DNA of 64,000 nucleotides from Candidatus Sumerlaeales bacterium (GTDB taxonomy: Bacteria; Sumerlaeota; Sumerlaeia; Sumerlaeales; Sumerlaeaceae). The notes beneath the pieces were generated by a model. That model ran no database searches. It saw only the letters and a program-made list of their open reading frames with translations, and was not told the DNA's origin. A program made the position numbers and the translations under genes. Positions 19,810 to 26,633 of this stretch are shown piece after piece. How positions within the stretch are numbered: position 1 is the first letter of the stretch; every line of letters starts with the position of its first letter. Location of the stretch: positions 1 to 64,000 of the forward strand of contig JBBSQY010000002.1 of NCBI GenBank assembly GCA_038243585.1, in the 5' to 3' direction.

Positions 19810-21651
19810 TCAGTCGACCTTGCGGACTGCTCCTTTGTCGGCGCTAGTGGCCATGGCAGCGTAAGCTCGTAAGGCTTTTGATACTTTACGTTCACGAACT
19901 TCAGTAGGTTTCCAGGCTTTGTCGCCATTGCCTTCCATGTCGGTGCGGCGGGAATTTAGTTCTTCGTCGCTGACTGCCATGTTGATGATGCGGTTTGGGA
20001 TATCAATATTGATGATGTCGCCTTCGCGGACGAGGCCGATGGCACCGCCTTCGGCGGCTTCTGGGGATGCGTGGCCAATGGACAGACCCGATGTGCCGCC
20101 GGAGAATCGGCCGTCGGTGAGGAGGGCGCAGGATTTGCCAAGGCCTTTGGATTTCAGATACGAGGTAGGGTAGAGCATCTCCTGCATTCCGGGGCCGCCT
20201 CGTGGACCTTCGTAGCGGATTATCAGCACGTCGCCGGCTTTTATCTGGTCGGTAAGGATCGCTTTTACGGCGCTATCCTGGCTTTCGAAGATGCGGGCAG
20301 GTCCGGAGAATTTAAGGATGTGTTCATCCACGCCGGCGGTTTTTACGATGCAGCCGTCGACCGCAATGTTCCCATAGAGGACGGCCAGTCCGCCTTCTTT
20401 GCTGTAGGCGTGTTCGACTTCTCTAATACATCCGTTTTGGCGGTCGGCGTCGAGGGTGTCCCAGCGGGTCGCCTGGCTGAAGGCGGTCTGGGTGGAGATG
20501 CCGGCGGGGCCGGCCTGGTAGAATTCCATGACGGCGGGGTCTGGATTACGTTTGATGTCCCACTTGTCCAGGGCGGCGAGCATGGTGGGGCTGTGGACGG
20601 TGGTTACGTCAGTATGGAGCAGACCGCCGCGTTCGAGGGCGCCAAGGATTGCCATAACTCCGCCAGCGCGGTGGACGTCTTCCATGTGATACTCGGGCGT
20701 GGACGGCGCGACTTTACACAACTGCGGAACCTTACGAGAGAGGCGGTCTATGTCGGCCTGGGTGAAGTCGATTTCGGCTTCGTGGGCGGCGGCCAGCAGA
20801 TGAAGGATGGTGTTGGTGGAGCCACCCATGGCGATGTCCAGCGTCATGGCGTTTTCAAAAGCCTTGAAGTTGGCGATGTTACGGGGCAGAACCGAATAGT
20901 CATCCTGCTCGTAGTAGCGGTTGCATAGTTCGACAATGGTGCGTCCCGCTTGTAGAAAAAGTTGCTCGCGGTCGGCATGGGTGGCAAGCATGGAGCCGTT
21001 GCCGGGGAGGGACAGGCCGAGGGCTTCGGTGAGGCAGTTCATGGAGTTGGCGGTGAACATACCGGAGCAGGAGCCGCAGGTAGGGCAGGCGGAGCGTTCG
21101 TATTGATCGACCTCGGCCTCGCTGAGTTTGTCGTCGGCAGCGGCGACCATGGCATCTACGAGGTCGAGCTTGACTTCTTTTGAGCCGAGCGTTGTTTTAC
21201 CGGCTTCCATAGGACCGCCGGAGACGAATACAACAGGCACGTTGAGGCGGAGCGAGGCCATGAGCATACCGGGGGTTATTTTGTCGCAGTTGGATATGCA
21301 GACGATGGCGTCGGCGCAGTGGGCGTTTACCATGTACTCTACGGAGTCGGCTATTATCTCGCGGGAGGGGAGGCTGTAGAGCATGCCGTCGTGGCCCATG
21401 GCGATGCCGTCGTCGACGGCTATGGTGTTGAACTCTTTGGCGACGCCGCCGACTCGTTCGATTTCACGGGCAACCAGCTGGCCTAGATCTTTCAGATGCA
21501 CGTGGCCCGGCACAAACTGCGTGAAGGAGTTGGATATGGCAATGATCGGTTTGCTGAAGTCTTCGTTTTTCATTCCGGTCGCGCGCCAGAGGGCGCGGGC
21601 GCCGGCCATGTTGCGGCCCTGGGTGGTGGTGTGTGAACGGTACTTTGGCAT
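19810..21651 (-). CDS. ilvD: Dihydroxy-acid dehydratase
   Basis: [61 protein letters not shown]. Confidence 0.98.
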
Positions 21652-21737: not shown

Positions 21738-23276
21738 TCAACTGGGCGGAGGGGCGCTGATGTCGCGGGTCAGGCGCTGGGCGCGGTGGACGCTGAGGGA
21801 GTAGTAGAGCCAGTGGATGTTGTGTTTCCATTTGGTCTCGCGGCTGACGATGGCTTGTGTAATGTCTTTTTTAGAATTGGGTGGAAGGGGAGACGCTATG
21901 ATGGCGGGCACCGCGTCTGCGGAGAGCTGTTTCAGGTATTCCATATCGCCGTCCTGTCCAGAGGTGTGTCTGCGGATGATATCATTGGCGATGATTCCCT
22001 GGATGTTGGGCGTCTGGATCGCGACACTGAAGAGAACCCCGACGGCAAGAGATGCAGGCAGAAAGAACCGGCCGCGACCGATGTGGTTCAGAACGTTTAA
22101 TAGAACGAGGATGCAGGCTAGCAGGATTATGAACGCGCTGACGTAGACACGAAGCTCTGTTAACCCATAATTTGCTGTATAGAGCAGCATGCGCTGGAGA
22201 GCTGAGACGATAATGATTCCGCCGAGGATGGTGATCCCAAGGCAAAGGGCGTTGAGCAGGTTCTTCTGGCGCGGGGTTTCGGTTATTGTGATGTTCATGA
22301 ACAGCATGAGGGTGGGAATTAGCAGGGTCGCCACCCACGCGAGTTCGAAGAAACCGCGGCGCGCGTATTCGCTTAACTGTAATCCCGGAGTGCCGCTTAC
22401 CTGGGATTGTCCGCCGAATAGGTAGGGCAGTTGGATAACGACAAACAGCAGGAACATCGCGGCGAGAAGGGAGAGGGCGGTTGCTGATTCTACGATGCCC
22501 AGTGCGGGAGCCCGCTTGTAGGGGGCGTAATCAGGGGACGCTGTTGGACCGGCGAGGAACGATGCGCTGAACAGGCCCAGGCAGGCGAGGAAAATCCAGA
22601 AAGCTATCCAGAATTGATCGTACAGCATGGGAAGAAACGACGTGAAAATTGTGTTGAAGATGCTGCCGAAACGCAGATCGGCGCTGGAGAAAAGCAATCC
22701 GAATATGAGGAGAAACGGCAGCGATATGCCGATGCCCATTAGCACGCGGGATGATGTAGCGGACGTGGATTGACTGAGACGCATTTTTTGCCAGGGAACT
22801 TCTGTCAGGAAAAGCAGCCAGCCAAAGTAAAGGCGGAATATGACGCGGAGGAGGTCGGCTGTTGTGGCCCAGGCGGTCTTCATCTGGCGGCTGAGGGACG
22901 GACTGCAGGCGAGGGCGGCAAAGCCGATGATCAACAGCGTGTTGACGGTGAAAAGGATATTTGATGCCCGTAGAGCTGTCGCCAATCCGTAGAATACGGC
23001 GAGGCTCGCGCATATTTTTCTCCAGCGCGGAACGTCGGTCAGTATGGATATGCAATACCATCCGGTAAAAAACAGCGCTATGCCAAGGGTTAGGTTAAGA
23101 CCGATTCCTGGGGCATCGCGAAATAACAAACTGCCGGCGATTCCGATAAGCGCCGCCGCGAGAGCAATGGCAAAGTAAAGGCGAGGCGACGGGGCATCTG
23201 GGGATAGCATGTCTTGCAGGCTCCGAGATTTTGACTCGACGGAGTAGAGCGGGGGAGTAATCGTCTGTTCGTTCAT
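21738..23276 (-). CDS. DUF4173/DUF4153 polytopic membrane protein
   Basis: [50 protein letters not shown]. Confidence 0.85.
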
Positions 23277-24199
23277 TTTGTCACGCTCCGGTTTGTGGCG
23301 GCGGCGGGGATGAGGGTGGTGGACGGTGGTTGAAAGCGCGGGCGAGACGGTTTGTGGGCCTCGGCGGCGATTTCGAGAAGTCGGTGGTGTACCGCGTCAA
23401 TTACAAAATCAGGGACGGAGGTTCCGGCGGTGAGGCCTATGGTATCGTAACGGATGACCCAGCTCGGGTCTATTTCGTCGGCAGAATTTACGCGTCGCGC
23501 CGGGACGCCGGCGTTTTCGGCCAGGCGGACGAGTTGAAGCGTGTTGTTAGAGTGGGGACCGCCGACGACTATTATGGCGTCGCATTTTGGCAGGAGTTCG
23601 AGCATCGCGGCCTGGCGGTCCCGGGTGGGGCGGCAGATGGTGTTGAACAATCGAACTTCGCTGGCGGGGTTTGCGATGCGCAGGGCGTCTGTGATGGCTT
23701 CGGCCGTGGTCGGTTGGAGGGTGGTCTGGCATACTATCCCGATGCGGGGATGGGGTAGCAGTACGGCTTCGGCGGGAGATTCAATGATGGTAAATTCCGG
23801 AAGGTCGCCGGTGAAGCCCTGTACTTCAACGTGGCCGCGCTTGCCGGCGACCACCACGTGCCAGCCTTTGTCATAAGCCTGGAGAGCGGTATCGTGGGCC
23901 CGGCGGACAAGAGGGCAGGTGGTGTCGATGATTTCTTTCCCAGCGTTCGACAGCTTTTTCCGCTCGCTGTTGCTTACCCCGTGGGCGGTGATCATGACGG
24001 TCCGTGTCGGGGGTATTTGTCGCCCAACTTCAGACTGGCTGGCAAAGCCTCTGGCGGCGAGGCGGCTGCTTACCTGTTCATTGTGAACCAGTTCTCCGTA
24101 GATGGTTACATCGGGGGGATGGCAGACTGTTTCGGTTAGAGCGATGGCGTCGCGTACGCCAAAACACATTCCCATGGCCTCGGCTCGGATAACACGCAT
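23273..24199 (-). CDS. ispH: 4-hydroxy-3-methylbut-2-enyl diphosphate reductase
   Basis: MGMCFGV, LVHN, TAHG, DTTCPLV, GHVEV, TICRPT, SNN, TAGTS; all three Fe-S cysteines present. Confidence 0.93.
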   Translation of the reverse strand: MRVIRAEAMGMCFGVRDAIALTETVCHPPDVTIYGELVHNEQVSSRLAARGFASQSEVGRQIPPTRTVMITAHGVSNSERKKLSNAGKEIIDTTCPLVRRAHDTALQAYDKGWHVVVAGKRGHVEVQGFTGDLPEFTIIESPAEAVLLPHPRIGIVCQTTLQPTTAEAITDALRIANPASEVRLFNTICRPTRDRQAAMLELLPKCDAIIVVGGPHSNNTLQLVRLAENAGVPARRVNSADEIDPSWVIRYDTIGLTAGTSVPDFVIDAVHHRLLEIAAEAHKPSRPRFQPPSTTLIPAAATNRSVTK

Positions 24200-24246
24200 A
24201 ATACTTCCCTTTCTTCGGGGATATCATAATGGTTGTTATCGCAATG

Positions 24247-24265
24247 TACTTTGCAATGCAAAGTA
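24247..24265. promoter_or_regulatory. Palindromic operator upstream of ispH
   Basis: TACTTTGCA-A-TGCAAAGTA perfect palindrome; its ACTTT-N7-AAAGT core is repeated at 25374. Confidence 0.75.
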
Positions 24266-24297
24266 TTATTTAGGGCCAAGTTTAAAAATATGTTTTA

Positions 24298-24732
24298 TTA
24301 AGCGGACACCCAGTCTCCCGGTAGTTTTGGCGCTTTGCTCGCGCTCTTTTCATCGCCGGTCTGTTTCTCCCTGGCGTCTTTTATCACCTGTTCCAGCTCC
24401 TGCAGGTACTCTGCGAACTTCTGCCTGCCCTGCTTTGTGATGCGGCACAAGGTCTGTGGCTTTTTCTTGTCGTAGCCTTTCCATATCTCAATCAGACCGG
24501 CATCGCGCAGCACATCCAGGTGTCGGCTCAGGTTGCCGTCGGTCAGCAGCGTGAGGCGCTTGAGATCGCCAAAGAGCAACCCATCGCTATGACTGATTAA
24601 TGAGGTCATAATTGCTAGGCGGCCCTTTTCGTGCATGGCGCGATCAAGACCTTCGTAGGCGAAGCGGCCATCTTCGGGAGGCGCTGATTCCGGCGTGGTT
24701 TTTGCCGAGTTTGAGGTTGGTTTTGTGGTCAT
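24298..24732 (-). CDS. Winged-helix transcriptional regulator (ArsR/MarR-like, HTH_34 type)
   Basis: LDRAMHEKGRLAIMTSL, FGDLK..LTDGNLSRHL..L..AGLI, TKQGRQKF. Start overlaps the upstream stop (ATGA). Confidence 0.88.
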   Translation of the reverse strand: MTTKPTSNSAKTTPESAPPEDGRFAYEGLDRAMHEKGRLAIMTSLISHSDGLLFGDLKRLTLLTDGNLSRHLDVLRDAGLIEIWKGYDKKKPQTLCRITKQGRQKFAEYLQELEQVIKDAREKQTGDEKSASKAPKLPGDWVSA

Positions 24733-25337
24733 GTTACAAGGCGCCTTTCCAGGTTTAAATAGAGAATACCAGCACCCGCGCACTGGCCGATCACGAAGAC
24801 CCATGCTAGCGCCCAGGCGGGTTGCGTTGGATCGGTGGGGTTTAGAAGCAGCCATGAACCGGCGGTGAGGTAATACAAGGCGACCCAGCCGGTGGCCCTT
24901 GGCAGAAACGGTCGGGACGAGAATATCCCAAGGCTGAAAATGATGGTCCATAGACCGGGCAGCAGGGGAACCGCCTGTGGGATAGCGCCGGCGACGCCTG
25001 CTCCGATGAGACCGCCGGCGGCCAGGCACGGCGCAAACTGTCCCCACACATAAAGGGTCTGGCGTCGCTCAAACCAGTCCTGTCGCAAAAAATGCAGCAG
25101 CACGGCCGATGCAGCGATTACGGCGCAAAGGCCCGCAACGATCAGCCAATACCAGGCGAAGGCCCGAGGGTCGTTTGCCGGCACCCAGGCGGGTTGAGCC
25201 CACGCGGCCAGCAGCCCGCCCATGGCGGATACGGCGACCGGAACGGGACGATATCCACGGTACAATTGGCCACGTGACATATGGCTGTGGATTTCGTTGA
25301 TCTGCTCCAGGGCAGCAGACAGGTTTGCATCGGGCAT
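24729..25337 (-). CDS. Multi-TM membrane protein coupled to the wHTH regulator
   Basis: ALEQINEIHSHM N-terminus, about 6 TM helices; translationally coupled to the regulator. Confidence 0.8.
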   Translation of the reverse strand: MPDANLSAALEQINEIHSHMSRGQLYRGYRPVPVAVSAMGGLLAAWAQPAWVPANDPRAFAWYWLIVAGLCAVIAASAVLLHFLRQDWFERRQTLYVWGQFAPCLAAGGLIGAGVAGAIPQAVPLLPGLWTIIFSLGIFSSRPFLPRATGWVALYYLTAGSWLLLNPTDPTQPAWALAWVFVIGQCAGAGILYLNLERRLVT

Positions 25338-25373
25338 TGCAACTTCTCCAGCGATTGTCGAGCATCAGTGTTC

Positions 25374-25390
25374 ACTTTATAAAGCAAAGT
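25374..25390. promoter_or_regulatory. Second ACTTT-N7-AAAGT operator
   Basis: ACTTTATAAAGCAAAGT, 36 nt upstream of the membrane-protein start. Confidence 0.7.
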
Positions 25391-25620
25391 AACATCTGAA
25401 TCTACGAGTATTCTTATGCCATGGACGGCGCTGTTTGTGGCCTGCTTAGGGAGGTAACCGCTTAATAGAGTTTAGGAAATGTAATGCCAATAAAAACTGG
25501 TTTGTCTGCTGTGGGATTATTTTATTTAATCCATAAGAGAATTGCCTTGCAACTCCCCCTTGCTCTGGACCTGCATGGTGCCTCGGGAAAAACAGCTAGC
25601 TTCAATAGAAAAGGAAAATC

Positions 25621-25968
25621 ATGCCAATACCTAATTTCAATGCATTTGTAAAGAAGCTACCTTTGGACGAACTGCAAAAAGAAATAGTTGAACTTTCTCA
25701 TGATCCTACTGGTGTCAGTGTCAGCTCATCGAATGTGATTTCGTTACTCATTGTTGCAAATCAGCTCAAAGAAGCTTCTGAAGGTCTTCGACAAATGGAC
25801 AAAAATCTCCAAGCGCAAATAGTTGCCATGGGAAATGCTCAGGACCAATGGCAGGCATCAGCCGCCAAGATTTCAAAAAGCCTGGCACTCGCAACCTGGG
25901 CACTTGTTGTGGTGACTGGCATTCTCTGTCTGATTACGCTGCTTTCTGTATCTATGAGTTTCGGATAA
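25621..25968 (+). CDS. Hypothetical coiled-coil protein with C-terminal TM helix
   Basis: RBS AAGGA; heptad-like middle; hydrophobic C-terminus. Confidence 0.65.
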   Translation: MPIPNFNAFVKKLPLDELQKEIVELSHDPTGVSVSSSNVISLLIVANQLKEASEGLRQMDKNLQAQIVAMGNAQDQWQASAAKISKSLALATWALVVVTGILCLITLLSVSMSFG

Positions 25969-25973
25969 CACCA

Positions 25974-26633
25974 ATGGCCAATTTCCCAAATCCACTCCAG
26001 AGACTTACTATTGCCGGTGCTGCTGTTGCCTTGGTAACATTGGCATTCTTTCCACCGTGGCACCATCAAATAAAATCAGGCCGTGAGAATTTTATCGGAT
26101 TCCATTTTTTGATTCAACCAGGGAAGGCAGTAAGCGGAACAGCTCCCGTGAGTATTGACCAATTTTCACTGTTGGCTTGCGCCGCCATTATCCTTACCAT
26201 TGCTGCTGTGTTCCTGTTGCTCTTCCATGGCCTTGCCTGGAATCCTTTTAAAACAGCGGGGGCATTTATCAGGCATAAAGTCACAATCGCGCTCCTGGTC
26301 ATCTGCTTTTTGGTCTGTGCTGTCTACCTTGGCTTTAGAGAGTACCGCATTGCCGGGGAGGTAGCAACATATAATAAGGCAGTGGTAGAATGGCAGAAAA
26401 GGGTTGAATCAGGCAAGGAAACAGACCCTAGATTGCTAGACGCCCCTATAATGGATTCTCTTTTTGCAGATAACCCCATTCTTTCTGTTTTGGGGTTGGC
26501 CAAAAGCCCTTATATGCTGATTCCTAATGAAGGGATATTGTGGAGAAAAGCAGAGGCACAGCAGGACAGACTAAAAGCGGCTAAACCTCTATCCCATACG
26601 CAAATTTACTCTCTCCCGGATAAGCCACAGTAA
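25974..26633 (+). CDS. Hypothetical membrane protein
   Basis: ATG 5 nt after the upstream stop; three hydrophobic segments, FFPPW motif. Confidence 0.65.
   Translation: MANFPNPLQRLTIAGAAVALVTLAFFPPWHHQIKSGRENFIGFHFLIQPGKAVSGTAPVSIDQFSLLACAAIILTIAAVFLLLFHGLAWNPFKTAGAFIRHKVTIALLVICFLVCAVYLGFREYRIAGEVATYNKAVVEWQKRVESGKETDPRLLDAPIMDSLFADNPILSVLGLAKSPYMLIPNEGILWRKAEAQQDRLKAAKPLSHTQIYSLPDKPQ

Follow-up and report, generated by a model that had tools for sequence, protein, structure and literature searches.

What does a short ispH gene do behind a winged-helix regulator and a small membrane protein of no named family? The question is raised by a gene string in a 64,000-nucleotide stretch of DNA from a Candidatus Sumerlaeales bacterium (GenBank assembly GCA_038243585.1, contig JBBSQY010000002.1, positions 1 to 64,000 of the forward strand), which was analyzed as a whole and is called the window here; the source genome, 3.43 Mb in size, is labeled G000, and all other G and L labels denote comparison genomes and loci. 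Read head to tail on the minus strand, the window encodes the small membrane protein, the winged helix-turn-helix (wHTH) regulator, an accessory IspH and a large membrane protein with a DUF4153 domain (Table 1). For this cassette we propose that an autoregulated repressor, gated at the membrane, would release a back-up supply of isoprenoid and lipid carrier together with envelope proteins, and we give this explanation as a whole a probability of roughly 0.55. The wiring, meaning the regulator, its two operators and the accessory IspH and DUF4153 protein as targets, is very likely to be as predicted, judging from conserved sequence and position.

ATGA start/stop overlaps couple the open reading frame (ORF) of the regulator to that of the membrane protein and join the DUF4153 ORF to that of ispH; gene order and both couplings are as an earlier sequence-only reading of this DNA described them. 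That reading had also placed ACTTT-N7-AAAGT before the first gene and, as a perfect 19-bp palindrome, before ispH, and both sites are found as claimed. The motif occurs exactly twice in the window, once in each candidate operator, against an expectation of 0.11, and two copies were reached in 1 of 100 shuffles of the window. The palindrome at O2 has a 9+1+9 architecture and lies 32 nucleotides (nt) past the wHTH stop codon and 47 nt ahead of the ispH start codon, while the edge of O1 is 36 nt upstream of the start codon of the membrane protein. The consensus of both sites is CTTTG-N5-CAAAG. No intrinsic terminator is predicted between the regulator gene and ispH, so that read-through from the first promoter is possible.

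A scan of the whole genome, as the sequence-only reading had advised, returned five exact matches to ACTTT-N7-AAAGT, two of them at this locus. With a position weight matrix (PWM) built from ten sites in six genomes, both local sites among them, O2 (31.1) and O1 (23.2) rank first and second of 14 hits, followed by C10:7534 (21.0) and C30:1081 (18.8). Two of the exact matches lie 232 nt apart on contig C3 (C3:58055 and C3:58287); they have a different inner sequence and fall below the PWM threshold.

Table 1. Positions of the cassette genes, candidate operators, window neighbors and B12 radical-SAM genes (window coordinates unless a locus is given)
Feature	Position	Strand	Evidence
Small membrane protein of unnamed family, 202 aa, N-terminal helix plus six long helices	24729-25337	-	no Pfam or NCBIfam match
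Winged-helix regulator (Pfam HTH_34), 144 aa	24298-24732	-	PF13601, 9.8e-24
Accessory short IspH (4-hydroxy-3-methylbut-2-enyl diphosphate reductase), 308 aa	23273-24199	-	LYTB, 3e-72
Polytopic membrane protein (DUF4153), 512 aa	21738-23276	-	PF13687, 1.9e-65
Candidate operator O1, imperfect palindrome, core ACTTT-N7-AAAGT at 25374-25390	25373-25391	.	motif and conserved position
Candidate operator O2, perfect 19-bp palindrome, ACTTT-N7-AAAGT at 24248-24264	24247-24265	.	motif and conserved position
ilvD, next gene after DUF4153	19810-21651		
Two ORFs divergent from the membrane-protein gene (115 aa, 261 aa)	25621-26633	+	hydrophobic stretches in translations
B12 radical-SAM gene, G004	L037:6988-8505		
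B12 radical-SAM gene, G008	L038:2028-3590		
B12 radical-SAM gene, G050	L063:4942-6462		

The cassette was compared across 75 Sumerlaeota genomes, which are kin and not independent, so that the counts are no statistical test. The small membrane protein is present in 18 of the 75, with the regulator always adjacent. The short cassette-type IspH occurs in ten genomes, all of them among these 18 pair carriers, and is absent from the 57 others, which do not have the pair. In eight of the ten (G000, G002, G004, G016, G029, G044, G045 and G047) it belongs to the same gene string as the pair. The two unlinked copies are preceded by operator-like sites as well, with two in tandem in G008 (PWM scores 23.0 and 25.9) and one in G009 (14.7), so an operator or operator-like site lies upstream of the short IspH in all ten carriers. 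The linkage with ispH, which the sequence-only reading had proposed to look for in relatives, thus recurs in eight of ten Sumerlaeota carriers, and it is also found in Planctomycetota and in a Burkholderiales metagenome-assembled genome.

Both operator positions are kept in G002, which is from the same genus, and in G004 from another genus; in G016 both are present but imperfect, and G029 has a site before the membrane gene and a second one (PWM score 17.8) just past the wHTH stop, before an inserted 741-aa gene. Twelve further Sumerlaeota pair loci were scanned, and most of them carry one site ahead of the membrane gene and another just past the regulator. The genes behind the second site vary. 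G000 and G002 have ispH followed by DUF4153, G047 has DUF4153 followed by ispH, and G045 has DUF4153, a 495-aa ORF and then ispH. A CarboxypepD_reg protein precedes ispH in G029 and G044, and a CarboxypepD_reg/propeller protein follows it in G016. In G004, and unlinked in G008, ispH is followed by a B12-binding radical S-adenosylmethionine (SAM) protein, which stands alone in G050. CreD takes the position in G017, and a Laminin_G_3 protein does so in G013 and G032. The ispH and radical-SAM genes of G008, behind their two tandem operators, are on a contig other than that of the pair. After the pair itself, on G008 contig C60 (L057:634-1743), there is a Peptidase_S58 gene (1.3e-112) with overlapping ends and without a strong operator.

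When one genome per species was scanned, at least 594 loci proved to encode a regulator relative. The 80 best were analyzed further; most are acidobacterial, and the others come from Planctomycetota, Rhodoplanes and other Pseudomonadota, and Omnitrophota. The membrane gene lies directly upstream of the regulator gene in 79 of these 80 loci, and the two ORFs mostly overlap or abut, with start codons chosen heuristically. For 73 loci from other phyla, operators were counted with the plain consensus CTTTG-N5-CAAAG, allowing at most one mismatch and independently of the PWM. Sixty of the 73 have a site in the 150 nt upstream of the membrane gene and 21 have one just past the regulator stop, against a background of only nine consensus sites elsewhere in 760,463 bases. 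Across phyla the half-sites are fixed and the five nucleotides between them vary, a pattern that fits protein binding better than an RNA stem. Thirteen loci have TTGAC(A/G) as their distal half-site, several of them with a -10-like hexamer 16 to 18 nt further on, indicating that a bound protein would lie over the -35 region and the spacer.

Where a second operator is present (21 loci, of which L137 and L142 appear near-identical and are not independent), the next gene belongs to one of five target families in 19 loci: IspH in seven, undecaprenyl-diphosphate synthase (UppS, Prenyltransf) in seven, CreD in two, the B12 radical-SAM protein in two and DUF4153 in one; in one more an ORF without a Pfam hit precedes the B12 radical-SAM gene, and in the last a 559-aa protein of no known family is found with a MacB/FtsX permease. 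At least one of the five target families is next to the pair in 27 of the 80 loci. Of 201 evenly sampled Planctomycetota, 29 have a regulator relative, and the next gene is IspH in 13, radical-SAM in six and UppS in two (21 of 29). The targets are second copies here as well: each of five genomes of other phyla that carry an IspH in the cassette has a second IspH gene, and each of five genomes that carry a UppS there has a second UppS homologue, one of the homologues being a contig-end fragment. An exact-motif scan of five other genomes returned the known cassette sites, two extra Acidobacteriota sites and two Stieleria sites with unrelated inner sequence.

The window IspH is a bona fide member of its family, predicted to be a 4-hydroxy-3-methylbut-2-enyl diphosphate reductase, and falls into a separate clade. 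It scores 243.6 bits against PF02401 (cut-off 24.5) and 248.9 against TIGR00216 (cut-off 187.85). The sequence-only reading had taken it for a paralogue that keeps its Fe-S ligands, and had suggested a search for a second ispH and a phylogeny; on each count the comparison bears it out. In alignments with the Aquifex aeolicus (PDB ID 3dnf) and Escherichia coli (PDB ID 4h4c) enzymes, all three [4Fe-4S] cysteines are in place, as are the catalytic residues (His, Glu, Thr, Ser and Asn), the active-site positions being matched to the E. coli residue numbering. All 39 IspH sequences compared share C12, H39, C95, H123, E125, T160, C189, S217, N219 and S261. A second LYTB gene, a 429-aa long form, is found on contig C18 of G000. 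In 41 related genomes the general type is the long form or an IspH-S1 fusion, whereas the short type is patchy and 48 to 70% identical to the window IspH. The latter is therefore the accessory copy and the 429-aa form the one common to relatives, with 30 to 37% identity between cassette IspH and the housekeeping forms found in its own or related genomes.

In the comparison of 39 sequences, the 17 cassette-type IspH, a group assembled by similarity to the window protein and including two unlinked copies, form one clade with a support of 100 in the Shimodaira-Hasegawa-like approximate likelihood ratio test (SH-aLRT) and a stem of 1.07. Residues M11, D17, V124, N218 and T260 are specific to this clade; position 11 is F in all 22 other sequences, position 218 is S or A and position 260 is A in all others. 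M11, V124, N218 and T260 adjoin active-site residues, the changes lying beside a cluster-ligand cysteine and the diphosphate-binding Ser/Asn motif. Compared with the canonical IspH/LytB (E. coli 3ke8 and 4h4c, A. aeolicus 3dnf), the window protein shares family scores, cysteine ligands and catalytic residues, but it is an accessory form from a separate clade that is always associated with the cassette operator. Since all catalytic residues are kept, a fully repurposed 4Fe-4S reductase, one of two possibilities raised by the sequence-only reading, is argued against.

Sequence comparison thus establishes the cassette, its candidate operators, the paralogy and the target set, from which the following mechanism can be proposed. 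The HTH_34 regulator, presumably dimeric, would bind CTTTG-N5-CAAAG at two places. Binding at O1, over its own promoter, would render the membrane-protein/regulator pair autoregulated, and binding at O2, in the gap before ispH, would hold down the accessory IspH and the co-translated DUF4153 protein; the placement of the sites suggests repression by promoter occlusion. The six-helix membrane protein, co-translated with the regulator, is the likely signal receiver, as their strict pairing and coupling suggest and rare in-frame fusions faintly hint. A membrane-borne cue would make it sequester or inactivate the regulator, as SdpI does SdpR, and thereby derepress the unit, adding flux through the last step of the methylerythritol phosphate (MEP) pathway along with envelope proteins.

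Both IspH and UppS contribute to the supply of the undecaprenyl-phosphate carrier, and CreD owes its name to envelope integrity. Because UppS, CreD or DUF4153 lie behind the same operator in other lineages, the most likely cue would be a shortage of a polyprenyl-phosphate lipid carrier or a related envelope stress, and the envelope-stress isoprenoid response named in the sequence-only reading gains support from the same genes. Read from the target set only, a lipid-carrier or envelope signal is nevertheless put forward tentatively. Doubtful is the most specific version, in which the six-helix protein would directly sense the polyprenyl-phosphate carrier or its precursors and gate the HTH_34 repressor, yielding more de novo carrier through IspH2 and UppS2 and envelope remodeling through CreD, DUF4153 and the B12 radical-SAM protein.

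Several observations weigh against the proposed explanation. Fifty-three of the 80 loci, mostly from Acidobacteriota, have no recognizable target beside the pair. Two extra exact ACTTTG-N5-CAAAGT sites in a complete Acidobacteriota chromosome (L163 and L166 in G085) adjoin ORFs without Pfam families, and the Laminin_G_3 (G013, G032) and CarboxypepD_reg (G016, G029, G044) targets do not obviously fit a lipid-carrier theme. In G000 itself there is no orthologue of the B12 radical-SAM protein, the best match having 35% identity, and none of the 14 PWM hits is on C31 or C93, the contigs of its two UppS-like genes. O2 is centered about 57 nt ahead of the ispH start, a position that could also suit an activator. 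The substitutions near the active site of the cassette IspH may mean a changed property of the enzyme. Finally, the small membrane protein has no known fold relative, which leaves the target set to suggest the signal.

The L163 and L166 sites are far from the pair locus of their genome and could be distal targets in lineages with a lone pair. On C93 of G000, a single relaxed CTTT-N7-AAAG match is found around the UppS-like gene, the second of its kind in the genome; this gene is cut by the contig end and divergent from a 373-aa ORF (C93:1-627 and 706-1827, L162).

The regulator matches PF13601 with 83.8 bits (cut-off 27) over positions 2 to 80 of 80. Its recognition-helix stretch TDGNLSRH has seven of eight residues invariant among 51 sequences and the eighth, S69, conserved in at least 90%, in line with the fixed half-sites. 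Among the same 51 regulators, a GR(F/Y)AYEGLDR segment before the winged helix is nearly invariant, and C61, nearly invariant elsewhere, is Thr in the window copy. Identity as an ArsR/SmtB metalloregulator (NF033788) was rejected at 27.1 bits against a cut-off of 55, and no conserved Cys/His metal-site pattern is present among the invariant columns of the 51 sequences. SdpR was likewise rejected (15.9 bits, cut-off 100). The closest solved relative is PH1061 of Pyrococcus horikoshii (PDB ID 1ub9, deposited as "hypothetical protein"), matching over the winged helix at 9.5e-12; it does not have the conserved N-terminal segment of the cassette regulator, and its record gives neither partner nor operator.

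The AlphaFold2 model of the small membrane protein has a predicted local distance difference test (pLDDT) score of 93.7. Foldseek gave no PDB match at E values up to 0.001, a wide VIA-align search gave a designed six-helix barrel as best match with a Z score of 9.3, which is in the range of generic helical bundles, and the ESM Atlas returned "hypothetical protein" clusters only, without a Pfam family. The Pfam search of 53 family members indicated no shared family, with DUF1129 appearing in eight at a best E value of 0.012. None of the 53 matches the SdpI model at E values up to 1, and identity with SdpI was rejected. A complex prediction for membrane protein and regulator scored 0.00, which, having been run without controls, says nothing either way. 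Two single-record proteins, P0001 and P0011, run in frame from the membrane protein into the regulator; the remaining long forms, two of which read through from the regulator into UppS, appear to be frameshifted gene calls.

These features allow for a different division of labor, in which the regulator itself would sense a soluble cue, such as a MEP-pathway intermediate or the redox state, perhaps through GR(F/Y)AYEGLDR, and the membrane protein would act as an effector expressed along with it, for instance in lipid handling. The near-invariance of the segment is consistent with this, Pfam searches find no recognizable sensor domain in the membrane protein, and contact between the two proteins is only proposed. 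Yet the pairing of the genes is strict, with overlapping genes in 79 of 80 loci, and it persists without an adjacent target, as is typical of partners rather than of a regulator and its cargo; single-record fusions such as P0001 are rare and add little weight on the same side. We consider a soluble cue unlikely.

The large membrane protein of the window matches PF13687 with 221.9 bits (cut-off 27) over positions 3 to 371 of 373. The sequence-only reading had labeled it DUF4173; Pfam assigns it to DUF4153, although the former label is defensible, as NCBI names several relatives "DUF4173 domain-containing protein". DUF4153 is found behind the same regulator in G002, G045, G047 and L123, with varying order relative to ispH. 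Its structure model (pLDDT 81.3) has no specific Foldseek match (best E value 0.025, template modeling score about 0.11), and the VIA-align search with the whole model of more than 400 residues gave a best Z score of 8.7 on a sub-range. No relation to CreD (PF06123) was detected, there being no Pfam CreD match and an hhalign probability of 0.5%. CreD itself is behind the same regulator in G017, L077, L092 and L136, with an operator before it in all four. At L123, a 1074-aa ORF downstream of DUF4153 (L123:4902-8126) combines extracytoplasmic function (ECF) sigma regions 2 and 4 with CarboxypepD_reg repeats, and may be two genes read as one.

The B12-binding radical-SAM protein, an orphan enzyme, has about 505 aa and a DUF4070-like tail. 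In most loci it is 63 to 72% identical among Sumerlaeota, Planctomycetota and Acidobacteriota, with 33 to 40% in L121, L131 and L191; relatives are encoded at L108, L116, L121, L125, L128, L130, L137 and L143. It scores below every named NCBIfam model, the best being HpnJ with 69 bits against a cut-off of 577.6, and its gene is usually behind the same operator, beside IspH or UppS.

Such an arrangement could reflect a pathway dedicated to a modified isoprenoid or polyprenyl lipid, with IspH2 or UppS2 feeding the radical-SAM enzyme and DUF4153 or CreD handling the product in the membrane. The high identity of the radical-SAM protein across phyla, the many loci in which it neighbors IspH or UppS behind the operator, its distance from all named models and the substitutions near the active site of the cassette IspH clade are all compatible with this. 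However, G000 and G002 have the IspH without the radical-SAM protein, many loci have only one of the enzymes, and the family scores and residues of IspH and UppS are standard, which makes a dedicated pathway improbable.

The cassette enzymes could also be inducible isozymes of IspH or UppS that tolerate stress or resist inhibitors, backing up fragile or inhibited enzymes under oxidative, iron or antibiotic stress. The targets being always second copies would agree with this, as would the clade-specific changes by the cluster-ligand cysteine and the Ser/Asn motif. But CreD, DUF4153 and UppS are not Fe-S proteins, the regulator has no conserved redox-sensing residues (C61 being Thr in the window) and no resistance context was seen, leaving such isozymes a very unlikely explanation. 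That the palindromes are chance matches and the gene order incidental is hardly credible: the motif is short, with 10 specified bases, and has three further exact matches elsewhere in the genome, but site sequence and position are kept in at least five phyla against a background of nine sites in 760 kb, and the linkage of the genes is conserved.

Turning to the surroundings of the cassette, ilvD lies outside the unit; in the same-genus genome G002 an alpha-amylase gene takes its place after DUF4153. The composition profile shows no compositional island at the locus. Upstream, two plus-strand ORFs are divergent from the membrane-protein gene (Table 1).

As a proposed membrane-gated repressor unit, the cassette is closest in architecture to SdpR-SdpI of Bacillus subtilis, in which an ArsR-type autorepressor is sequestered by a polytopic membrane protein. 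Both are two-gene units of a small winged-helix regulator and a multi-helix membrane protein of about 200 aa; they would have autoregulation by repression in common, and they would share the logic of membrane sequestration, which is only proposed for the window cassette. They differ in that the gene order is reversed, that the cassette proteins match neither the SdpR nor the SdpI model, and that the cassette targets are isoprenoid and envelope genes instead of toxin immunity. CreD, a "cell envelope integrity protein" (NCBIfam NF008712) of the CreBC regulon, lies behind the cassette regulator in the four loci named above, but the window has DUF4153 in its place, and the regulation would be by HTH_34 and not by CreBC.

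In its proposed function, the cassette is closest to YhdLK-SigM, with which it has no parts in common. Depletion of UppS or IspH in B. subtilis is reported to trigger the undecaprenyl-phosphate-sensing YhdLK-SigM pathway, which is described as confined to Bacillus and close relatives and as the only defined carrier-sensing pathway (PMC11081497). As described there, a membrane module frees a transcription factor when undecaprenyl phosphate drops, and IspH and UppS are tied to the signal. The difference is that an anti-sigma complex acts there with an ECF sigma factor, whereas the cassette has a six-helix protein and a putative HTH_34 repressor; SigM, moreover, mainly reprioritizes and recycles the carrier, whereas the cassette targets are extra copies of synthetic enzymes.

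The cassette would be of a known kind, a winged-helix repressor with a membrane partner, and has an unreported and unusually coherent target set. The literature searched, mostly abstracts and without supplements, contained no description of the cassette and no paper that treats IspH together with a cobalamin-dependent radical-SAM protein, and at the abstract level no paper on the function of DUF4153 and none of relevance on HTH_34.

How bacteria beyond Bacillus sense and adjust a scarce lipid carrier is an open question, for which the cassette provides a concrete and testable candidate. Should the six-helix protein sense the carrier or its precursors directly, the cassette would do with unrelated parts what YhdLK-SigM does in Bacillus, and would do so widely, in Sumerlaeota, Planctomycetota, Acidobacteriota, Pseudomonadota and Omnitrophota. 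The candidate offers a 15- to 19-bp operator conserved across phyla, a two-gene switch and a short, coherent list of targets, and it is found in cultured organisms that are not pathogens (Stieleria, Rhodopirellula baltica and Rhodoplanes), where genetics is possible. Furthermore, the cassette defines a separate, regulated clade of IspH and would give a first functional context to three families of no known function, namely DUF4153, the 200-aa membrane protein and the B12 radical-SAM protein.

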